Origin: Escherichia phage vB_EcoM-606R7
Sequence record: ON470580
Direction: 5' to 3' (one strand)
DNA length: 38,458 bases
Positions 1,956-15,247 of the stretch are shown here, in pieces. The translations under genes and the position numbers were made by a program. Below the pieces are notes generated by a model. The model ran no database searches. It saw nothing but the letters and a program-made list of their open reading frames with translations, and was not told the DNA's origin. Numbering within the stretch: the first letter of the stretch is position 1; each line of letters begins with the position of its first letter.

Positions 1956-2311
1956 CAGTGAGTGACCTCTTCAAAGGTACAGTTAAAATCGGTATACATG
2001 GCATTATCCGAAATGCTCCACTCCCTGCAGACAACCCGGACAGTCCTGTTGTGTTTTGGCGGACGCCACAAAAAAGCACGAATCCCGGCATGACGGGATA
2101 AAAAACTGTCCAGCGCGGCACGGGAATATTCATCTGTGACACGAAATACCGGTTTAAACGTTTTCAGATCCGCATTCAGACCACCAGCCCGTCGCTGTTC
2201 ATATCCGTCACCAAACTTTACCGTAATAACTGATGGCTTTCGTGTCGTCTCCATCCCCTCACGGGGGATCCAGTTAAAAACTTCAGGCTCAGGCACTGTA
2301 CAATCCTCCAT
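1955..2311 (-). CDS. M: Minor tail protein M (lambda gpM family)
   Basis: ORF aligns with recalled lambda gpM (VRFGDGYSQR versus VKFGDGYEQR). Start placed at the MEDCTVPEP methionine; an alternative start is at 2254. Confidence 0.75.
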   Translation of the reverse strand: MEDCTVPEPEVFNWIPREGMETTRKPSVITVKFGDGYEQRRAGGLNADLKTFKPVFRVTDEYSRAALDSFLSRHAGIRAFLWRPPKHNRTVRVVCREWSISDNAMYTDFNCTFEEVTH

Positions 2312-5300
2312 CCCGACGCGATGACTGCATAATTGACACAACCCTGCTGTCGATCAGATCCACCAGTCCCCTGGCTGAGCGCGCATCTATCTCGCCATTG
2401 CTCCCTTGATTCTGAATGCTGATGTGATACACGGGAGAATAAACAAATCCACCACCACCATTCACATTTCCAATGGCCCTGACCCCAAGAGAGCCGTCCG
2501 CTGCCCGTGTCAGTGGCATGATTGCTTCAGGCCCGGCCTCGCCCATCAACCCGGCACCTTTCGCAAAAGCAAAATACGTCGGTGTATCCACAATAGTGTT
2601 ACTGTAAGCACTCAGATTTGCCGATGTGTAAACACCACCTTTTGCGTTTGCCACTGCCCCCGAAATCCATCCGCCGACCGTACCAAGCCACCCTCCGGCA
2701 CCGGAGAGTGATTTCAGTCCGTTAACAATGGCTGCATTCATCAGAATTTTTGAAACTTCCCGGAGAACTGAACTCCCCCAGTTCCTCCAGTCCACAACAT
2801 TCCCGGCCAGTGCATCGGAAATATTTGATACCAGCCCGTCCATCGTGGAAACGACAGCATCTGCCGCCTGTGAAGCATAATCGGTGGCACTGTCTGCCCA
2901 GTTGGTCAGTCCCTCCTGGAGTCCGGCATTCCAGTTATTACGTAAAGCATCGGCCTTTGCATAATAATCCTGCTGATCGCTGAGACGCTCTTCCAGATAT
3001 TTTTTATTCAGTTCTTTCTCCTGTTTCCACAGGGCTTCTTCAATTTCTCCGGCCTGATACTGTCTCAGCAGCTCGTTATTTTTCTGCTCAAACGCCTGCC
3101 GGATACTCCACATTTCCTGGAGTCGTTCACGCATCCGTGAGCCTTCACCATATCCCAGCAACTGCGCTTCGTCAGATGCCCGGGCACTGGCATTACTGTC
3201 CGCCAGACTGCTCTCATACGCAGCAAGCTGCTCACGAATCTTTTTCTGGTCGATGAGTGCTGCATTCTGCAAAAGCGTTTTTTTCTGCGCTTCTGACAGG
3301 GTTGATAATTCGCCCTGACTGACCTGATATTTCATCTTAGCCAGTTCAGTATTCTGCCCTGCCAGTGCTATTTGTTCTTTTTGCTGTTTAATCAGCCGTT
3401 TATAAATATCTTCTGTTTTTTCCGCTTCGGTCTTTTTATACGCTTTGGGTTTATTTGCCTGGTTATTTCGCCAGGCATCCAGTGAGTTATTGATATAATT
3501 CTGTCTGGCTGTCTGATACGCCTCTCCCACAAAGCCGAGATCATCCGCAGCATAACCCAGGCGGGCACGCTCACGGGCTTCCCCCTTCAGGCGGGACAGA
3601 GCCAGTTCGCGCTCGCTGTTATTCAGTGCGGTCTGCTGTTTATCATCCAGGGTTGCCTGTGGTAGCCGTAACGGTACATTCACCAGCCCCTGTCGCTGCA
3701 GAAGTAATTCATTACCGAGCCCGAGAAGGCGATTAAACTCGGTATGCTGCCCATTCATGATCAACAGGGACTGATACGCTTTGTTTTGTTCCGCGGCCTG
3801 TTGACGGATCAACGCCACCCGTCGCTCCTCCAGCCCGGCAAGCACATCCTGAATGGATTGCGCTTTGCCCTGCATTTGTGTGAGACGGGACTGTTCAACT
3901 GCCAGTTGATTTGTTGCTTCTGCAAGCCCTTCTGTGACAGTTTTTACCGACGTCATGTGGTTAATCATAAAACCGTTATCGGTTGTCCAGCCCGGGTTTG
4001 CCAGCACATACTGATAGCCAGCAATTTTTTCCTGTAAGGATTTAATCTTACTTTTCTGCTCGTCAATTAACCTGTTTTGCTCATCAAGTGCCTGCCGCGT
4101 CTTTTCCTCATTATCTGACGCTTCAGGAAGCGACATTGCCGACGTTTTCTGGCGAATTTCGTCGATTGTTGCGGCATACTGGCGTGCAGATTCTCTGGCC
4201 TGCTCCTGATTCTGATACATCGTGTACCAGGCCGTCGCCCCCAGCATGACGAGTCCCGGCACACCACCAACCAACCCCAGCGCACCACTTAACAGACGAC
4301 TCCCCACTGACGTGACAGTATTCAGCGTTGTCTGTGCAGCTGTTCTGGCCGCAATATTACGGGTAAGTGACGCCTGGGCAGCTGTCAGCTTCGCTTCTGC
4401 TGCGGCCTGCCTTTCGGTACCGCGAGCAGCAACAACCGCCTGTTGCGCACGATAAACCGCCGCACGCGCCCTGGCGGTTGCTATCTGTGTCCCCCGAAGT
4501 TGCGCTTCAGCAAGAGCCACTTCGTTTCTGGCTGCAGTAATTAATCCGGCAGTTGCAGATCCAGCAGACGACGCCATATTGCCAAAATATCGGGCTACCC
4601 CGACGGCAACCAGTGCGCCAGCTGCAGCAGCCACGGTATCAATATTGTCTGCAACACCATTCAACACCCCGGTGAGTGTCTTTGTCACTCCGCTTGCCTC
4701 GTTCGCACCACCAACCCAGGCCATAAAGGCGTTTTCAACTTTGGTTGCAGAGGATGAAACAGTATCAGGCATTGCTGCATATTCATCACGCAACGCCCCA
4801 AGCTGACTAATCAGTGCAGGAACAACCTTATCGGCGGTCAGTTTTCCGTTATCCGCCATGGCCTTCAGATCCTTACGGGCAACACCCATTCCCGCAGCCA
4901 GCGCACGAATAACACGATCGCCGTTCTCATTCACAGAGTTAAATTCTTCACCGCGCAGCACTCCCTGCGCCAGTGCCTGACTGAACTGCGTGATCACCGA
5001 ACTGGCTTCTGCTGTACTGGCACCGGATAATTTCAGGCCCGTGGAGATCGCCTCGGTGACTTTCAGTACCTCCTCAGAACTGTAGCCATACTCCCGCATG
5101 GAAGCTGCAGAGCGGGCAAAAAGGCTGGCGTTATCAGAAAACGCCGTTCCCGTTCTCTGGCTGATTGCCATTAATTCACGTTGTGATACCTGAAAATCAT
5201 CACTGGACTGTGAAGCCTGCTTCAGACGGGCATTTACTGAATTCCACTCATCGGCGAGAGAAATAAGATGACCGGTAGCAAAAGCTCCGGCAAATGCCCC

Positions 5301-9924: not shown

Positions 9925-10611
9925 TTAGAAGTTCAGATTTTTCAGTGCATTCAGTGCAGAGCCCACATCCTCAGCGTCGCGCAGGGACAGTGCGCCATAG
10001 CCCCCGGCCATGAATGCTTTGGCCTGGGTACGGGAGAGTCCGACATCACGCAGGACTCTTTCGATTTTTTTCTGTTCGGGGATTTCCCCGCGGGCCAGTG
10101 CGTTCTTGACGTCGCTGATCCGCGCCTCGTCGTTAGACGGGAACGTCACCAGGCTGACTTCCCAGAGGTCGATTTCTTTCAGCAGAAAGGCTTCTTTGCT
10201 CCGGTCGTATTCCCAGTCTTTCAGGACGTACCCAATAGAAAGGCCGGTTAACGAACCGGCCTTCATGTGTGCATGTGCGCGTTTTGCGAGGGGATCATCA
10301 TCAATAAGCAACCGTCCCCTGACGTAAAGCCCGACATCGTCTTCCTTCATTTCGGTGTAAACACCGATGGGTTCATCCATGCGGTGCTGCCAGAGCAGCG
10401 CAGGTAACGCTTTTCTGTCACTCCACGCCCGCAGGGAAGCAGCAAATGCCCCGGACATCACCACATCATCGTGGCTGTCCTTTACACCAAAGACGGAGCC
10501 ATACCCTTCAAACTCACCGGAGTCACTGACAGATTTCAGACTCAGCGGTACATCAAGACGTTGTTTCGTCTGCATTGGCGTTATCCTTCTGCTTACCGGC
10601 TTTACTGCCAT
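9925..10611 (-). CDS. Prohead protease (HK97 gp4 family)
   Basis: Contains the EFEGYGSVFGVKDSHDDVV motif and sits between portal and capsid. Start is uncertain; the ORF overlaps the portal 3' end. Confidence 0.8.
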   Translation of the reverse strand: MAVKPVSRRITPMQTKQRLDVPLSLKSVSDSGEFEGYGSVFGVKDSHDDVVMSGAFAASLRAWSDRKALPALLWQHRMDEPIGVYTEMKEDDVGLYVRGRLLIDDDPLAKRAHAHMKAGSLTGLSIGYVLKDWEYDRSKEAFLLKEIDLWEVSLVTFPSNDEARISDVKNALARGEIPEQKKIERVLRDVGLSRTQAKAFMAGGYGALSLRDAEDVGSALNALKNLNF

Positions 10612-11794
10612 CGGAGGGTTTCGTGGTCATGTTCATCGGGGTGAGATAGACATCACCACCGGGACGCGGATTCATATCTTCCAGGTCGCGGCAGTCATTA
10701 GGAGAGTAAATTCCCCAGTTGATCCCGGTGGCGTAGGCTTCAAAACGGGACTTCATATCCCCGCGCAGTAACGCCCCGGCGTTAAATTTGGCGTAATAAA
10801 CGCCCTGCTTACTTTTTCGTACCAGTCCGGTGTTGATCCGCTGCTCAATGCGGGTCAGATACGGCACCAGTGAATAGTTGATAAATCCCAGCCCCAGCTC
10901 TTCGATATTGTTGAAGGTGGCGCGATCGGTGTTCTGCACCATGTGCAACGGCACCCGAAACAGACGACAGATTTCTTCAAGCTGAAACTTGCGGGTTTCC
11001 AGGAACTGGCTGTCCTCGGCGTTCAGCGCCATCGACTTCCAGTCCAGCCCCATCTCAAGGATCATCGGGCGGTGAGCATTGCCAAGCCCGGTGTGACGCT
11101 CCTCAAAATCTTTCTTCAGGCGCTCGTAAGCCTGATCTGACAGCGTCTGCTCTGTACGCAACACACCGGACGTCACCGCACCATTGCTGAACAGTCTGGC
11201 CCCGTGCTCTTCGGTCGCTGCCGCCAGCGATATTGCCTCGCGGGCATAGGCGATGGGATTCAGCCCCACCAGTCCGTCCAGCGTCAGCGTGCGCACATGC
11301 CAGATATCCTCCTGGCTCAGTACATCCGTGGAGCCGTCCGGGAATGTGACCTGATAGACCGGCTCCCAGCTACTGTTAAGCTTCGGTACCACACAGCCAG
11401 GATCGACGGGCAGCAGTTCAGCCACTTCGCCAAATGCTTTCACTTTGTAGGCGTAAAAGTTTCCCCTCAGGCACAGACAGGTGACCACCAGCTCCCAGAA
11501 CTCCTGCGGCGTCATATATCCATTGGGATGCGTGGAGATCAGCTTATGCAGACGTTCGCCGGTGGCTCTCTGTTTCAGGCTGCCGTTCAGGTGATACAGA
11601 TTGCAGGGCAACATCCCGACCGACTCTGCCAGCACCCTGACGCAGGAAAAAACCGCCGTCAGTCGCATGGCCCGCTGGCTGCTGATCTGCTTTCCGGTAT
11701 AGGTGTCGTATGACAGCCCGATAGCATCCGCCAGCTCTGCTGGCGTGGTCACCGGCGCGTCACTTTTTCGTTGAAATAATCCCGAAAAGAACAC
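10553..11794 (-). CDS. Portal protein (HK97 family)
   Basis: 413-aa ORF between the terminase block and the protease; typical portal length. Confidence 0.85.
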   Translation of the reverse strand: MFFSGLFQRKSDAPVTTPAELADAIGLSYDTYTGKQISSQRAMRLTAVFSCVRVLAESVGMLPCNLYHLNGSLKQRATGERLHKLISTHPNGYMTPQEFWELVVTCLCLRGNFYAYKVKAFGEVAELLPVDPGCVVPKLNSSWEPVYQVTFPDGSTDVLSQEDIWHVRTLTLDGLVGLNPIAYAREAISLAAATEEHGARLFSNGAVTSGVLRTEQTLSDQAYERLKKDFEERHTGLGNAHRPMILEMGLDWKSMALNAEDSQFLETRKFQLEEICRLFRVPLHMVQNTDRATFNNIEELGLGFINYSLVPYLTRIEQRINTGLVRKSKQGVYYAKFNAGALLRGDMKSRFEAYATGINWGIYSPNDCRDLEDMNPRPGGDVYLTPMNMTTKPSDGSKAGKQKDNANADETTS

Positions 11795-11976
11795 TATTTA
11801 CCTCCGCCGACAGACGGCTGTGTACGGTCGAGATATCGCGCCACCAGCCACGACCAGAACAGGCACAGCGCCCCGGCAACAACAAAACCCGCCGGGGGAT
11901 AAATCAGCCAGGCACCATACGCCAGCAAAAGCGCACCCAGCACGCCCACCAGTGGCGCGAGAATTATCAGAAACAT
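11794..11976 (-). CDS. Small two-helix membrane protein inserted between terminase large subunit and portal
   Basis: 60-aa ORF with two hydrophobic helices ([26 protein letters not shown]... [21 protein letters not shown]). RBS GAGGT precedes the ATG at 11974-11976; the stop overlaps the portal ATG. Confidence 0.6.
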
Positions 11977-11987
11977 AATGACCTCGG

Positions 11988-13745
11988 TTAAAGCGAGCGG
12001 ATGCCCACGCTGACCAGATGTTCAGACAGATCCGGCTCCGGTTCACCACCATTGACCAGCATCCGGCTCATTGCTGTAAACATCGCAACAGGGCCGTCGA
12101 TTTTGGCTTCCAGCGTGGATTTATTCGGGAAGATATTGTCGTTTTTGTCCGGTTTTACCGTAACGTTAGACATCATCCAGTTCATGACCGGATGATTGCT
12201 GTGATGGAAACGTCCGGCATAGACCAGTGATTCCGTTTCCTTCATGGCCTCTGACAGATTGCGAACCGTCTGCGGAACCTCCACCAGCGGTATCCCTTCT
12301 TCAGCCAGTGCTAGGCTGAACTGCATCGCGCTCCACGGGTCAAATCCCAGTTCCCTGAGGTTTTCACCACCAATCCATTCCAGTAAGTCACTTTTTATCT
12401 GAGCATGATCGATAACATCACCATCCGTCAGAATCAGCTTATCCATCTCCGCCCACTTCCGGTAAAGTTCTGCCTGCTGCCGCGAGCATCGTTCCAGCCG
12501 TCCTTCCGGGAGCCAGAATTTAAAATCGGCATGAACATGCCCGTTATCCGTTCGCCAGAGTTTTGCCGCCGCACAGATATCAATCTTATGAGCAAGGTCA
12601 ACGCCGACCCACATGGGATACGTTTTCAGCTCATGTCGCGGGGCAATGTATTCGCACTTCTCCCACTTAATCATGTCCATCCAGGCAGACTCTGCTGTTA
12701 CCCACACATTCATGTGTTTGGTAAAAAAATTCACCCGCGCAGAGACCTGTTCTTTCGCTTTTTTCGCCAGACGACGCAGATCATCCCAGCGTTTACAGAT
12801 GCCCAGGCCAGGATTCGCTTTCTGCCAGACCGTTTCATCAAACGGATCATCTCCCTCATCGAGGGTGTAAATAATCGCAAAGTAGGAGTCGTCTTTTACA
12901 GCGCCCTCCACGTCGCTGTTATAGCCACGCAATACCTTGATGGCATAATCACGCTGCTCGTAACAAATCCCTTCCTTGTTAAACCCTGCCGTGGTGATAC
13001 CAAATAAAAGGGACTGCAGACGGGCACCGGTTGCCGTTTCCAGAACGTCCCACACGTCACGGGTTTTATGTGCATGCAGCTCATCAATAATGGCGCAGTG
13101 GATGTTCAGACCATCCAGGTTGTTTGCATCCGAAGAAAGCGGTTCAAATTTTGATGCGCTCTGCTCCTGGTAAATCGCCAGCTTGTTGAAATCAAACAAC
13201 CGCCCGAGTGTCGACCGGGCTTTTCTGACCATATTTTTGGCGTCTTCAAACACGATTCTGGCCTGGTCACGCGTGGTTGCGGCTGAATACACCTCAGCAC
13301 CGCCTTCACCATCTGCCCCCGTCATATACAGACCGATACCCGATGACAGGGTTGATTTTGCGTTTTTACGGGCAACTTCGTTGTATGCTGTCCGGAACCG
13401 GCGCACCATCACCGGGCGCCCGCTGCCATCGCTGCGCATGACAACTTCCCCGGTCTCTTCATTGACCAGCGGAATGACAAAACCAAAAATATTAATGAGG
13501 ATAAATACATGCCAGTCCATCAACTCAATAGGCTGGCCTGCCAGCGCCCCTTTTACATGAGGCACAAATTTGTAGAAATTCAGGATGTGCTGCGCACGTG
13601 GTTCACTGAAATAAATCCCCCGCTCTTCGCCGTACTTTAGATCATCAAGAAAACGCTGGCAGGCCAGGCGGACAAATTCGCCAGCAACAATTTCTCCTGC
13701 AACAACACGTTCGGCGTAGCGGATCCCGTCAGCCACTTTTGCCAT
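11988..13745 (-). CDS. Terminase large subunit
   Basis: 585-aa ORF with a Walker-B-like IIDELH segment and nuclease C-terminal half; follows the small subunit. Confidence 0.9.
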
Positions 13746-14227
13746 CAGTCTCTCGCTTTTAAAAGCTCCGCCAGCGGATCAACATCATCCGGTCCGGCAA
13801 TATTTACTTTAGCCCGGCTTGCCGGTGACATACCAAACTCTGCAAGCATTGCCCGGATCCGCTTCCAGGCATCCGCTTTCATTGCCGCCGCGGGGTGCGC
13901 CTTAATCAGTACATCACCGCTCTGCGTTTCCGTGCGGTAGGTATACCCCTCAACATCGAGTGTTTCGCAGTGATGCCGATATTCGGTATAGGCTTCCACC
14001 AGCAACTCGAGTGCACGCGCATCAAGCTGAGAAATGATCCCTTCCGCATTCAGCTCTTCCGCCATTCGCCTGAACCAGTACTTCCCCTGTGCCCCTAAAT
14101 GCTGCGGAATTTTAGGGAGACCTTTTTCATCCTTTTTAGCGGTTTTTTTTGAGTCTTTAACGGGGCGCTTTGAGGGGTTGCCTCGTATCAAATGCAGGCG
14201 TGGCGGGGTTTTCGGAGGTCCTGACAT
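13745..14227 (-). CDS. Terminase small subunit (P27 family)
   Basis: 160-aa ORF with a basic N-terminus, immediately upstream of and overlapping the large subunit. Confidence 0.7.
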   Translation of the reverse strand: MSGPPKTPPRLHLIRGNPSKRPVKDSKKTAKKDEKGLPKIPQHLGAQGKYWFRRMAEELNAEGIISQLDARALELLVEAYTEYRHHCETLDVEGYTYRTETQSGDVLIKAHPAAAMKADAWKRIRAMLAEFGMSPASRAKVNIAGPDDVDPLAELLKARD

Positions 14228-14374: not shown

Positions 14375-14725
14375 TCAATTGATGCGTTCGCGCGCTGTTT
14401 TTGCTTTATGACAGGGCCAGCACAGACTCTGCAGGTTACTGTCTGCATCCGTGCCACCATGAGCTTTCGGAATGATGTGGTCCACAGTTCTGGCTTCAAC
14501 GGCTCTCCCATTGCGCAGGCAGTTCTGACACAGATGATTATCACGCTTCAGTATGCGCGCACGTATGGCATCCCATTTCGAGCCATAGCCACGCTGGTGG
14601 CGGCTCAGTCCGCGTTGATGCTGTACCCATCCTTCGCCACGATGTTTATCGCAGTAACCAGAACTGTCTGTGGTTGTACCTGCACATCCACGCTTACGGC
14701 AGGCGCGTGGGATTCGTGATGGCAT
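14375..14725 (-). CDS. HNH endonuclease (packaging-associated)
   Basis: Cysteine pairs CRKRGC and CQNC with the HNH core DHIIPKAHGGTDADSNLQSLCWPCH; sits upstream of the terminase genes as in HK97-like cos phages. Confidence 0.85.
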   Translation of the reverse strand: MPSRIPRACRKRGCAGTTTDSSGYCDKHRGEGWVQHQRGLSRHQRGYGSKWDAIRARILKRDNHLCQNCLRNGRAVEARTVDHIIPKAHGGTDADSNLQSLCWPCHKAKTARERIN

Positions 14726-14767: not shown

Positions 14768-15247
14768 CTACTTAATGCACTGAGTGCGGATATACTCCTG
14801 TGCCCCTTCCAGTTGCATCTGCATCGTCATCAGCCGCTCTCTGAGGGTGAAATAATCCCGTTCAGCGGTGTCTGCCAGTCGGGGACTGGTTGCATTATCC
14901 ACGCCGGAGGCGGTGGTGGCTTCACGCACTGACTGACAGACTGCTTTGATGTGCAACCGACGACGACCAGCGGCAACATCAGCGCGCAGAGTTTCATTTT
15001 CAGCTTTCGCATTGGCTAATTCTCTCGAGTACTTTGCATCGAGCGCAGCAACATCACGCTGACGCTGCTGCATGTCAGCGATGGTGGCGGTCACCTGCTT
15101 CAGCTCACTGACTTTTTTATCACGCTGTTCTTTGTAGGTGATGGCGTTATCACGGTAATGATTGACCGCCCACGACAGGCAGACGATGATGCAGATAACC
15201 AGAGCATAAATAATCGCGGCGACTCTGCTCACTGATCTATTCCCCAA
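14768..15247 (-). CDS. Rz: Spanin inner-membrane subunit Rz
   Basis: Near-identical to recalled lambda Rz ([25 protein letters not shown]...[28 protein letters not shown]). Confidence 0.85.
14830..15012 (-). CDS. Rz1: Spanin outer-membrane lipoprotein Rz1, embedded in Rz in the +1 frame
   Basis: 60-aa ORF with lipobox VVGC and a proline run ([30 protein letters not shown]), matching recalled lambda Rz1. Confidence 0.85.

Follow-up and report, generated by a model that had tools for sequence, protein, structure and literature searches.

A ymfR-family membrane hairpin gene at the terminase–portal junction of Escherichia phage vB_EcoM-606R7

Why should a gene for a small membrane protein lie between the genes for the terminase large subunit and the portal protein? 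The question is raised by Escherichia phage vB_EcoM-606R7. An earlier note on its DNA considered a membrane protein unusual at this place and suggested that it could be an exclusion or host-interaction moron. The window analysed here is the whole stretch of 38,458 nucleotides (sequence record ON470580), and its minus strand is the coding strand of the 60-amino-acid reading frame. The junction has the following features.

11988..13745, minus strand: terL, the terminase large subunit gene and upstream neighbour (Pfam TerL_ATPase and TerL_nuclease).
11982..11985, minus strand: Shine-Dalgarno sequence GAGG of the small gene, read from the sequence, 5 nt 5' of its ATG (11976..11974) and 2 nt past the terL stop.
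11794..11976, minus strand: ymfR-family gene for a 60-aa small membrane protein of PHROG 502 (ORF list, PHROG match, RefSeq CDS, dN/dS).
11801..11805, minus strand: portal Shine-Dalgarno sequence GGAGG within the small gene's final glycine codons (sequence GGC GGA GGT AAA TAG TG).
11792..11796, minus strand: TAGTG, where the small gene's stop TAG (11796..11794) and the portal start GTG (11794..11792) overlap by one base (sequence).
10553..11794, minus strand: portal gene, the downstream neighbour (Pfam Phage_portal, E = 4e-108).

The small gene is housed in a gap of 193 nt between two Pfam-confirmed neighbours, and 11 nt separate it from the terL stop. GAGG and TAGTG bear out the earlier description of a 60-aa frame with a good ribosome-binding site and a stop on the portal start, and RefSeq makes the same call for the GTG. 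The TAGTG overlap is the arrangement expected for translational coupling. Relatives retain the small gene's ribosome-binding site as (C/T)GAGG and have a stop/start overlap in the same place, as TAATG or TGATG. At the place of the portal Shine-Dalgarno sequence they carry GGAGG, GGGGG or AAGGAG, with a C-terminal GG(E/D/K); the conserved C-terminal GG of the protein can thus be put down to the portal signal embedded in its codons.

Judged by its sequence, the gene is a copy of ymfR, which means family membership beyond resemblance. The protein matches PHROG 502 ("membrane protein") over residues 1-55 with E = 2e-27 and shares 56 of 60 residues (93%) with E. coli K-12 YmfR from the e14 prophage. 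Since ymfR is already named and annotated, although uncharacterised, the gene is a known one and not a new discovery. Annotated counterparts include L37 of phiP27 ("membrane protein"), sb3 of ST64B, orf3 of SfI and a "putative integral membrane protein" of SfII; further carriers at the terL-portal junction are phi467, SfIV and Klebsiella phages. A membrane protein here is therefore the rule in this lineage (phiP27, ST64B, SfI, SfII, phi467 and e14), contrary to what had been supposed. Of 5426 complete E. coli genomes, 1387, about a quarter, contain DNA of the small gene, and the relatives form 164 clusters at 90% identity and 168 at 50% identity. A genome search with the narrower alignment gave 15 loci.

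Other family names were considered for the protein. Pfam, NCBIfam and PADLOC hold no family for it or for 36 relatives, giving weak compositional matches only (DUF1206, TctB); Pfam, searched at E up to 1, yielded just three membrane families (TctB, DUF1206 and RseC_MucC), all well under their cut-offs. DUF1056, which we take to be a possible occupant of the terL-portal junction in lactococcal phages, was matched by no family member, and in the literature it came up only as an entry in a list. Some database homologues (H17, H23, H27) are labelled "head-tail joining protein W". Lambda gpW is a soluble head-completion protein. An identity with gpW was rejected, as the protein is strongly hydrophobic and its Pfam matches were to membrane families only, far below cut-offs; for the latter reason the label on the homologues looks like an annotation error.

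The predicted protein is a hairpin of two helices, and its parts are encoded as follows.

11902..11973, minus strand: first hydrophobic helix, codons 2-25, with small residues G11, G14 and G21 (hydropathy, AlphaFold).
11893..11901, minus strand: tight turn of the hairpin, codons 26-28 (YPP), part of the conserved W-L-I-Y-P-P-A-G (alignments A1 and A2, AlphaFold).
11821..11892, minus strand: second helix, codons 29-52, with a hydrophobic core at residues 29-47 (hydropathy, AlphaFold).

Hydropathy (GRAVY 1.22) gives two hydrophobic stretches with IYPPAG between them. The AlphaFold2 model places helices at residues 2-25 and 29-52 and a turn at 26-28 (mean pLDDT 76), in agreement with the two membrane helices proposed in the earlier note. 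In the wide alignment A2, G14 is invariant, G11 and G21 are nearly so, and two motifs, W-L-I-Y-P-P-A-G and C-L-x-W-S-W, are still recognisable at 35% identity; across the 19 Enterobacterales sequences of alignment A1 both motifs are invariant. Positive charges are confined to the C-terminal side, and the charged part from R47 on is predicted to face the cytoplasm. By the positive-inside rule we infer an N-in/C-in topology, with both ends cytoplasmic. Tandem fused versions of the hairpin occur in nature directly 5' of a portal gene; the AlphaFold model of one of them has four helices at a low-confidence pLDDT of 64 and says nothing firm on their packing. A profile search of PDB sequences gave no match to a solved structure, and Foldseek of the model against the PDB returned only a hairpin of V-ATPase subunit e at an uninformative E = 4.6.

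Is the frame a gene at all? RefSeq annotates an identical CDS (WP_000478564.1). Among pairs with dS of at least 0.5, where dS is near 1, dN/dS lies between 0.09 and 0.54 and mostly between 0.15 and 0.35. Amino acids are thus conserved where synonymous sites are saturated, and the protein is under purifying selection. GC by codon position is similar to that of the portal gene. Neither of the overlapping frames, one of 84 aa on the minus strand (11798..12052) and one of 52 aa on the plus strand, is retained in relatives, and an Rfam scan of 11300..12500 on both strands found no RNA family. The reading frame is a real gene, more than a chance frame. That it is translated, as the earlier note held likely, is very probable.

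The overlap and the internal portal Shine-Dalgarno sequence would give coupling whatever the peptide, and related phages do with terL coupled directly to the portal gene. The frame could then be a chance ORF, or a spacer translated only to adjust how much portal is made, with no function for the protein itself. The values of dN/dS speak against this, as do motifs that survive to 35% identity and the recurrence at the same spot of two-helix frames, remote or analogous hairpins, as in loci L061 and L062. An absence of protein function is therefore very improbable.

The gene keeps close company with the portal gene: it lies directly 5' of it in every context examined. At the terL-portal position it overlaps or abuts the portal gene of an HK97-type head module in the window, phiP27, a Klebsiella phage, e14, distant members and 27 IMG/VR loci. 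Relatives of 35-50% identity come from Vreelandella (Halomonadaceae), from Gilliamella and from a metagenomic contig encoding an alanine-rich variant. In these the gene order is HNH, terS (Terminase_4), TerL, hairpin, portal, protease, capsid, and the head protease is S49-type (ClpP-like), not S78-type (the HK97 prohead protease family).

Evidence for joint inheritance can be found by comparing loci with the window. In L004 and L008, TerL is 36% identical to that of the window, whereas identity reaches 92-93% for the small gene and 99% for the portal. In L013 the values are 91% for TerL, 69% for the small gene and 82% for the portal. The divergence of the small gene follows the portal and not TerL. 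Between the window and the SfI-like L004, identity is about 40% over terL and at least 90% from about -25 nt on, through the small gene and the portal gene. The change falls at a short mosaic junction.

11977..12002, minus strand: last ~6 terL codons and spacer (ATCCGCTCGCTTTAAC(C/T)GAGG), common to otherwise unrelated terL types (window compared with SfI-like L004).

Tail type varies as well: the identical gene in E. coli strain 165 stands beside lambda-like tail genes, and e14 has a contractile-tail baseplate gene. Comparison of these loci shows that the small gene and the portal gene are inherited as one block even where the types of TerL, protease or tail have been exchanged.

This linkage has a range. 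The conservation in HK97-like prophages on which the earlier note had made its proposal depend is found at the terL-portal junction with all 23 sampled portals of at least 70% identity. Among portals of 45-70% identity, five of eight lack the gene, as do the majority of those under 45%; with portals of 66%, 62%, 61% and 47% identity, terL abuts the portal gene and the small gene is missing. HK97 has no such gene. Because sister lineages and HK97 lack it, the gene is not essential to this head type and a core role in assembly is unlikely. It is an accessory gene that HK97-like phages of the P27, SfI, ST64B and e14 types conserve in their head (portal) block. Adjacency and the start/stop overlap alone suffice for co-inheritance, so the linkage is no proof of a functional tie; no fusion of hairpin and portal was found among the matches.

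Morons are a further way to account for an accessory gene. The promoter/terminator scan found no terminator-like site for the small gene on the minus strand, and the sole promoter-like match on that strand has its -10 inside the reading frame, 3' of the ATG. The GC content of the frame is 0.60, against 0.53-0.59 in the flanks. With no promoter or terminator of its own, ordinary base composition, only 11 nt to terL and an overlap with portal, the gene is not a classical moron. The label proposed for it earlier is not supported, also in view of its block inheritance with portal; the suggested co-expression with the morphogenesis genes, by contrast, is supported by the portal overlap and the lack of separate signals.

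A role in exclusion or host interaction need not depend on the label. An inner-membrane hairpin could block the entry of superinfecting DNA or alter the envelope, like gp15 of HK97. Phages can encode small exclusion proteins of the membrane among their morphogenesis genes: gp15, from the tail operon of HK97, bears the annotation of a moron product (Cumby et al. 2012, as cited in PMC11364771). PHROGs places 502 in "moron, auxiliary metabolic gene and host takeover", the patchy presence among more distant portals suits an accessory gene, and e14 of K-12 has kept ymfR intact next to a truncated terL and a truncated portal gene. Against this, the coding-strand signals and compositional deviation are missing, whereas gp15 is flanked by annotated terminators; the protein does not align to gp15, and four family members matched no PADLOC family at E up to 1. 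The gene always stands right before portal, and it is with portal that it co-varies and not with the modules for tail or receptor; its sequence is conserved over hosts as unlike as E. coli, Vreelandella and Gilliamella. In K-12, a treatment that induced the SOS (lexA) regulon also raised ymfR by 4.5 log2 units, along with the other e14 genes (PMC10012262); this is the behaviour of a phage lytic gene. Nothing was found that points to an exclusion or host-interaction role, which we regard as fairly unlikely.

Lysis is another late event in which small hairpins take part. The protein could be a holin- or antiholin-like factor that makes or modulates late membrane lesions, and thereby times lysis. 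It resembles class II holins and pinholins in its size, its two glycine-rich helices, its charged C-terminus and its predicted N-in/C-in topology, and its expression is probably late. When 392 membrane-protein clones were screened for release of D-alanine, a K-12 clone overexpressing ymfR was one of 65 that scored in the first round. According to the authors such release can reflect leakage or lysis, and the clone was lost at the second round (PMC10299036). The gene lies outside the lysis cassette. In E. coli strain 165 the identical prophage already has a lysis cassette 5' of the HNH endonuclease gene, which encodes a class II holin and a lysozyme as well as a downstream lysis protein, and the window itself has nested Rz/Rz1-like frames (14768..15247 and 14830..15012). 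Pfam gave no holin match for the protein, and only one of 36 relatives matched Phage_holin_3_6, at E = 0.09. Nor does anything connect holins with portal genes. On this evidence a lysis function is improbable.

A protein whose synthesis is coupled to that of the portal might also be packed with it. As an ejection or pilot peptide it would enter the inner membrane of the next host and aid DNA entry, and a hydrophobic hairpin with glycine-zipper-like spacing would fit such a task. A protein of such hydrophobicity is, however, expected to insert into the membrane of the producer cell during its synthesis. The gene is independent of tail type, although DNA entry is usually linked to the tail; it is missing from HK97 and many related heads, and no virion proteomics reporting the small protein was found. 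A place in the virion is very improbable.

On balance, and counting observed and inferred parts jointly, it is moderately probable that the gene is no moron with expression of its own but encodes an accessory membrane hairpin, made late and coupled to the portal. The anatomy of the locus suggests that the late-operon transcript carries the small gene. Ribosomes that end the small gene may re-initiate on the portal gene, and by this re-initiation the small protein would be made late and roughly in step with portal. The 60-aa helical hairpin would insert in the inner membrane and leave both its ends in the cytoplasm. Its conserved glycines and other small residues probably allow it to self-associate there; tandem fusions occur naturally.

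What the hairpin may do in the membrane is a more tentative matter. Our preferred guess, which is possible but falls short of probable, is a role at the membrane in partnership with the head module. The hairpin might provide a docking site for the portal or prohead-initiation complex, as gp40 does for gp20 in T4, or a tether for the late mRNA during its translation. To our knowledge, HK97-type portals and proheads assemble without membranes, which counts against a docking role. A stronger version makes the hairpin the membrane partner of the portal: made one-for-one by coupling, it would form an oligomer that docks the portal dodecamer or the translating late mRNA. Prohead initiation in this large group of HK97-like phages would then be nucleated at the membrane as with T4 gp20 and gp40, and other portal lineages would be served in like manner by the hairpins of PHROG 7105, L061 and L062. 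This version is quite unlikely.

The gene is common, being found in E. coli, in Shigella serotype-converting phages, in Salmonella ST64B and in the Stx phage phiP27, and still no member has a reported function. The literature held no study of the family as a small membrane protein between terminase and portal, and no functional experiment on any member among the reports that mention ymfR. Because it stays strictly attached to portal across swaps of terminase, protease and tail, it makes a cheap and well-defined target for deletion and complementation. A phenotype in head assembly would mean that membrane-linked portal initiation is not confined to T4, and one in exclusion or lysis would add an accessory function to the late operon.

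Several known systems can be compared with this locus. Gp15 of HK97 is likewise a small (62-aa) membrane protein encoded within the morphogenesis operon of an HK97-like phage. It differs in having one N-terminal hydrophobic helix and a polar tail, annotated terminators on both sides, a moron label and a place among tail genes, and it shows no sequence similarity. Lambda W and ORFs 3-5 of SPP1 occupy the same position between terL and portal as the small gene; the SPP1 frames are dispensable and are regarded as morons (PMC6316719).

In T4, gp40 is needed for the membrane-bound portal initiator gp20 (PMC9958956), the one case in which a membrane-portal link is established. The comparison is one of how the proteins may work, and no homology is claimed. 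Gp40 is required for normal head initiation, whereas the small gene is dispensable in sister lineages.

Phage SfV has the terminase of SfI (PMC3636060). Its portal block differs from that of SfI and carries a hairpin frame of its own, an unannotated two-helix ORF of 53 aa (2289..2450) that lies at the terL-portal junction and overlaps the gene on either side. This ORF is remotely related to the small gene (hhalign E = 2e-5; PHROG 502 E = 6e-6). It belongs to a separate family, PHROG 7105, lacks the Y-P-P-A-G and W-S-W motifs, and accompanies another portal (28% identity).

The closest likeness is to K-12 YmfR and to the proteins of phiP27, ST64B, SfI and SfII, which agree with the window in length, two-helix hairpin, terL-portal place and stop/start overlap. 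In e14 the order of genes is aaaE-ymfR-beeE. Relative to phiP27 and SfI the terL of the window is of another type (36-38% identity), and relative to e14 the identical gene in the strain 165 prophage keeps company with lambda-like, not contractile-tail, genes.

The 193 nt from terL to the portal gene in the window hold a 60-codon ORF, the small gene. The earlier note had described it, with a ribosome-binding site and a stop overlapping the portal start, and that observation is correct.

11988..13745, minus strand: terL, terminase large subunit (Pfam)
11794..11976, minus strand: small gene, 60 codons (ORF listing)
10553..11794, minus strand: portal gene (Pfam)

Between the terL stop and the start of the small gene lie 11 nt, and GAGG precedes the ATG with a spacing of 5 nt. 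The boundary with the portal gene reads TAGTG, the TAG stop and the portal GTG having one G in common. The portal Shine-Dalgarno sequence falls within the small gene's last codons (GGAGG in the window, GGGGG or AAGGAG in relatives). The C-terminal Gly-Gly of the protein is thus conserved because its codons form this site, an explanation at the DNA level.

By sequence, fold and position, the small gene falls in the YmfR / PHROG 502 family. The protein matches PHROG 502, "membrane protein", with E = 2e-27 and shares 56 of its 60 residues with K-12 YmfR; Pfam, NCBIfam and PADLOC hold no family for it. The gene is already known, and deposited records such as those of phiP27 and ST64B class its product as a putative integral membrane protein. 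The phiP27 copy is L37, annotated "membrane protein", at the same junction, where copies are also found in ST64B, SfI, SfII, SfIV, phi467, 118970_sal3 and Klebsiella phages. E. coli chromosomes carry the same DNA (RefSeq hypothetical protein WP_000478564.1), and a search with the ORF alone was positive in 1387 of 5426 complete E. coli genomes. The strain 165 copy lies in a lambdoid prophage beside mtfA and a serine tRNA gene; the prophage combines an HK97-type head with lambda-like tail genes and a small terminase subunit of the P27 family. In K-12 strains the match is ymfR of the defective prophage e14. In W3110 (locus L111, 7841..9578), ymfR is intact and full length between a terL without its N-terminus and a portal gene without its C-terminus; the 136-residue portal remnant also occurs at loci L005 and L007. 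Among the papers found to mention ymfR, none is a study of its function.

Some deposited labels look wrong. Homologues in ON470603.1, ON470584.1 and PQ793804.1 (matches H17, H23 and H27) are called 'head-tail joining protein W', probably an annotation error derived from position or an automatic pipeline; the Pfam scan gave the small protein no match to gpW. The gene also appears at 93-94% identity in OR844959.1 (H26; 1764 bp, named 'Enterococcus phage Efm 3-10') and in L006 (JAEWTL010000102.1), a contig placed in a Bacillota metagenome bin and carrying a portal 99% identical to that of the window. These copies of an enterobacterial gene look like contamination or mis-binning.

The small gene is a real coding gene under purifying selection. 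Pairwise dN/dS is 0.09-0.54, mostly 0.15-0.35, for pairs with dS of at least 0.5. Relatives form 164 clusters at 90% identity; an exhaustive search yields 168 at 50% identity and a profile search 551, and nearly all clustered relatives are 55-65 aa long. Invariant in 19 Enterobacterales sequences are W23, I25, Y26, P27, A29 and G30 in the turn region, C38, L39, W41, S42 and several glycines; down to 35% identity the glycines and the tryptophan are still nearly invariant.

Two membrane helices had been predicted, and both hydropathy and modelling agree. The protein is very hydrophobic (GRAVY 1.22), IYPPAG divides its two hydrophobic stretches, and charged residues are confined to the C-terminal tail. 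AlphaFold2, run with a 36-sequence alignment, places helices at 2-25 and 29-52 around a turn at 26-28 (pLDDT 76). With charges on the C-terminal side alone and a loop of three residues, the hairpin would sit in the inner membrane and have both its ends on the cytoplasmic side. It probably also self-associates, given its conserved small residues and the existence of natural tandem fusions. In the latter, duplicated hairpins are joined into single four-helix proteins of 102-122 aa (P0140, P0147, P0188, P0222), which suggests at least a dimer as the active form of the single hairpin. P0188, the tandem form with DNA context (L110, 64..399), ends at the portal gene start; the AlphaFold model of a tandem form is of low confidence (pLDDT 64).

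The small gene belongs to the portal block and is inherited with the portal, as comparisons across differing terminases show.

Identity to the window by locus.
SfI-like loci L004 / L008: TerL 36%, small gene 92-93%, portal 99%
phiP27: TerL 38%, small gene 90%, portal 88%
Klebsiella michiganensis locus L013: TerL 91%, small gene 69%, portal 82%

Between the window and an SfI-like locus, DNA similarity is about 40% up to a point some 25 nt ahead of the small gene's ATG and at least 90% beyond it; that point lies within the last six codons of terL, in a short stretch common to unrelated terL types. This stretch of about 25 nt (11977..12002, minus strand; terL end and spacer, ATCCGCTCGCTTTAAC(C/T)GAGG; compared with L002, L004 and L008) is shared by terL genes otherwise 36-38% identical at the protein level and is the exact onset of similarity to SfI/phiP27-type phages. 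It looks like a module-boundary sequence at which terminase and head blocks exchange.

The genomic context of distant members was also compared, in Vreelandella, Gilliamella, two metagenomic lineages and an alanine-rich variant from a metagenome (P0206). All have the order HNH endonuclease, small terminase subunit, TerL, hairpin, portal, protease, capsid, also where the head protease is S49-type (ClpP-like) instead of S78-type (HK97 prohead protease). Two further members on short contigs, one of them tandem-fused, lie directly 5' of a portal gene. Tail type is irrelevant, since an identical gene accompanies lambda-like tail genes in strain 165 and e14 has a contractile-tail baseplate gene. Adjacency alone can explain the co-inheritance with the portal.

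The window itself has the following genes upstream of terL.

13745..14227, minus strand: P27-family small terminase subunit gene
14375..14725, minus strand: HNH endonuclease gene
14768..15247, minus strand: outer ORF of a nested pair
14830..15012, minus strand: inner, lipoprotein-like ORF, wholly within the outer

An HNH gene directly upstream of the small terminase subunit gene is the arrangement of cos-packaging HK97-like phages. The nested pair just upstream of the HNH gene is read as an Rz/Rz1-type spanin pair.

How widely the junction is occupied can be seen among portal relatives.

What abuts the portal gene among 80 IMG/VR loci, the best 80 matches and a non-random sample, by portal identity to the window.
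70% or more: family ORF 23/23, TerL directly 0, other 0
45-70%: family ORF 3/8, TerL directly 5/8 (portals 66, 62, 62, 61, 47%), other 0
Below 45%: family ORF 1/45, TerL directly 14/45, other two-helix mini-ORF 2, something else 28

In HK97, terL and the portal gene overlap with nothing in between. By this sampled distribution and its absence from HK97, the small gene has long persisted as an accessory of one portal lineage and is dispensable for this kind of head. The earlier note had considered a membrane protein unusual here, which is wrong for this lineage (phiP27, ST64B, SfI and others, and all 23 sampled portals of at least 70% identity); conservation in related phages and prophages, which it had proposed checking, is found in phiP27, SfI, ST64B, e14 and Klebsiella phages. 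Small dispensable genes at this junction are known, for example in SPP1 (ORFs 3-5; PMC6316719).

In SfV the case is reversed: 98% identity to the SfI terminase extends almost to the terL end, but the portal block is different (PMC3636060). Its annotated 99-nt terL-portal "gap" contains an unannotated 53-aa two-helix ORF (L026, NC_003444, 2289..2450; MKSLIADVIGLAGFGLLTCGVYLQFGMAPALILSGALLLVGALAMARRGTRAA), a PHROG 7105 member (E = 3e-22) remotely related to the YmfR / PHROG 502 family. The annotated portal GTG at 2392 falls within this ORF; starting instead from a GTG at 2440, the portal would begin MLLDALFRSKS..., in line with the window portal N-terminus MFFSGLFQRKS..., so the deposited start is probably too far upstream. 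Two-helix mini-ORFs also end exactly at the start of distantly related portals (40% identity) at L061 (2807..2995, 62 aa) and L062 (2762..2938, 58 aa). Neither matches the family profile, and at L061 the gene upstream has no resemblance to the terL queries. Hairpin mini-ORFs at portal starts may be more widespread than PHROG 502.

The proposal that the gene is a moron is not supported. The coding strand of the region has no terminator-like site, GC content resembles that of the neighbours, and inheritance is with the portal. The sole promoter-like match on that strand (11963..11991, minus; TTAACC, 17 nt, GATAAT; 9/12 matches) is a weak sigma-70-like site whose -10 hexamer falls past the ATG, within the ORF. 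Transcription starting there would take in the portal gene but not the small ORF's start codon; the site is probably a chance match, with 2 sites in the region against 0.4 expected. The gene thus shows neither the transcription signals nor the deviant composition of a classical moron. HK97 gp15, a superinfection-exclusion moron, is bracketed by annotated terminators and has one hydrophobic helix, whereas the small gene has no signals of its own and encodes two; the proteins show no similarity. Nor does the small protein match known defence proteins (no PADLOC family). The gene may still act in exclusion, as first suggested, but its architecture gives this no support.

The small gene would be read as part of the late-operon transcript, with translation immediately ahead of the portal; its product would therefore be made late, roughly in step with the portal. 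In K-12, a treatment that induces the lexA regulon also raises ymfR by 4.5 log2 units, along with the other e14 genes (PMC10012262); these data fit phage-controlled expression.

The one hint of a holin-like role is ambiguous: on overexpression, a D-alanine halo appeared in the first of three screening rounds, and the authors ascribed it in part to leakage (PMC10299036). In strain 165 the prophage is already equipped for lysis, with a class II holin, a lysozyme and a lysis protein downstream. The small protein also matches no holin family in Pfam. Losses in sister lineages argue against a core role. A role tied to the head module is weakly favoured.

Why a membrane hairpin stays joined to the portal gene is a real and easily tested question, but no new kind of system is demonstrated. 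In the sole established precedent for a membrane-portal connection, that of T4, the gp20 portal initiator is bound to the membrane and needs gp40 (PMC9958956).
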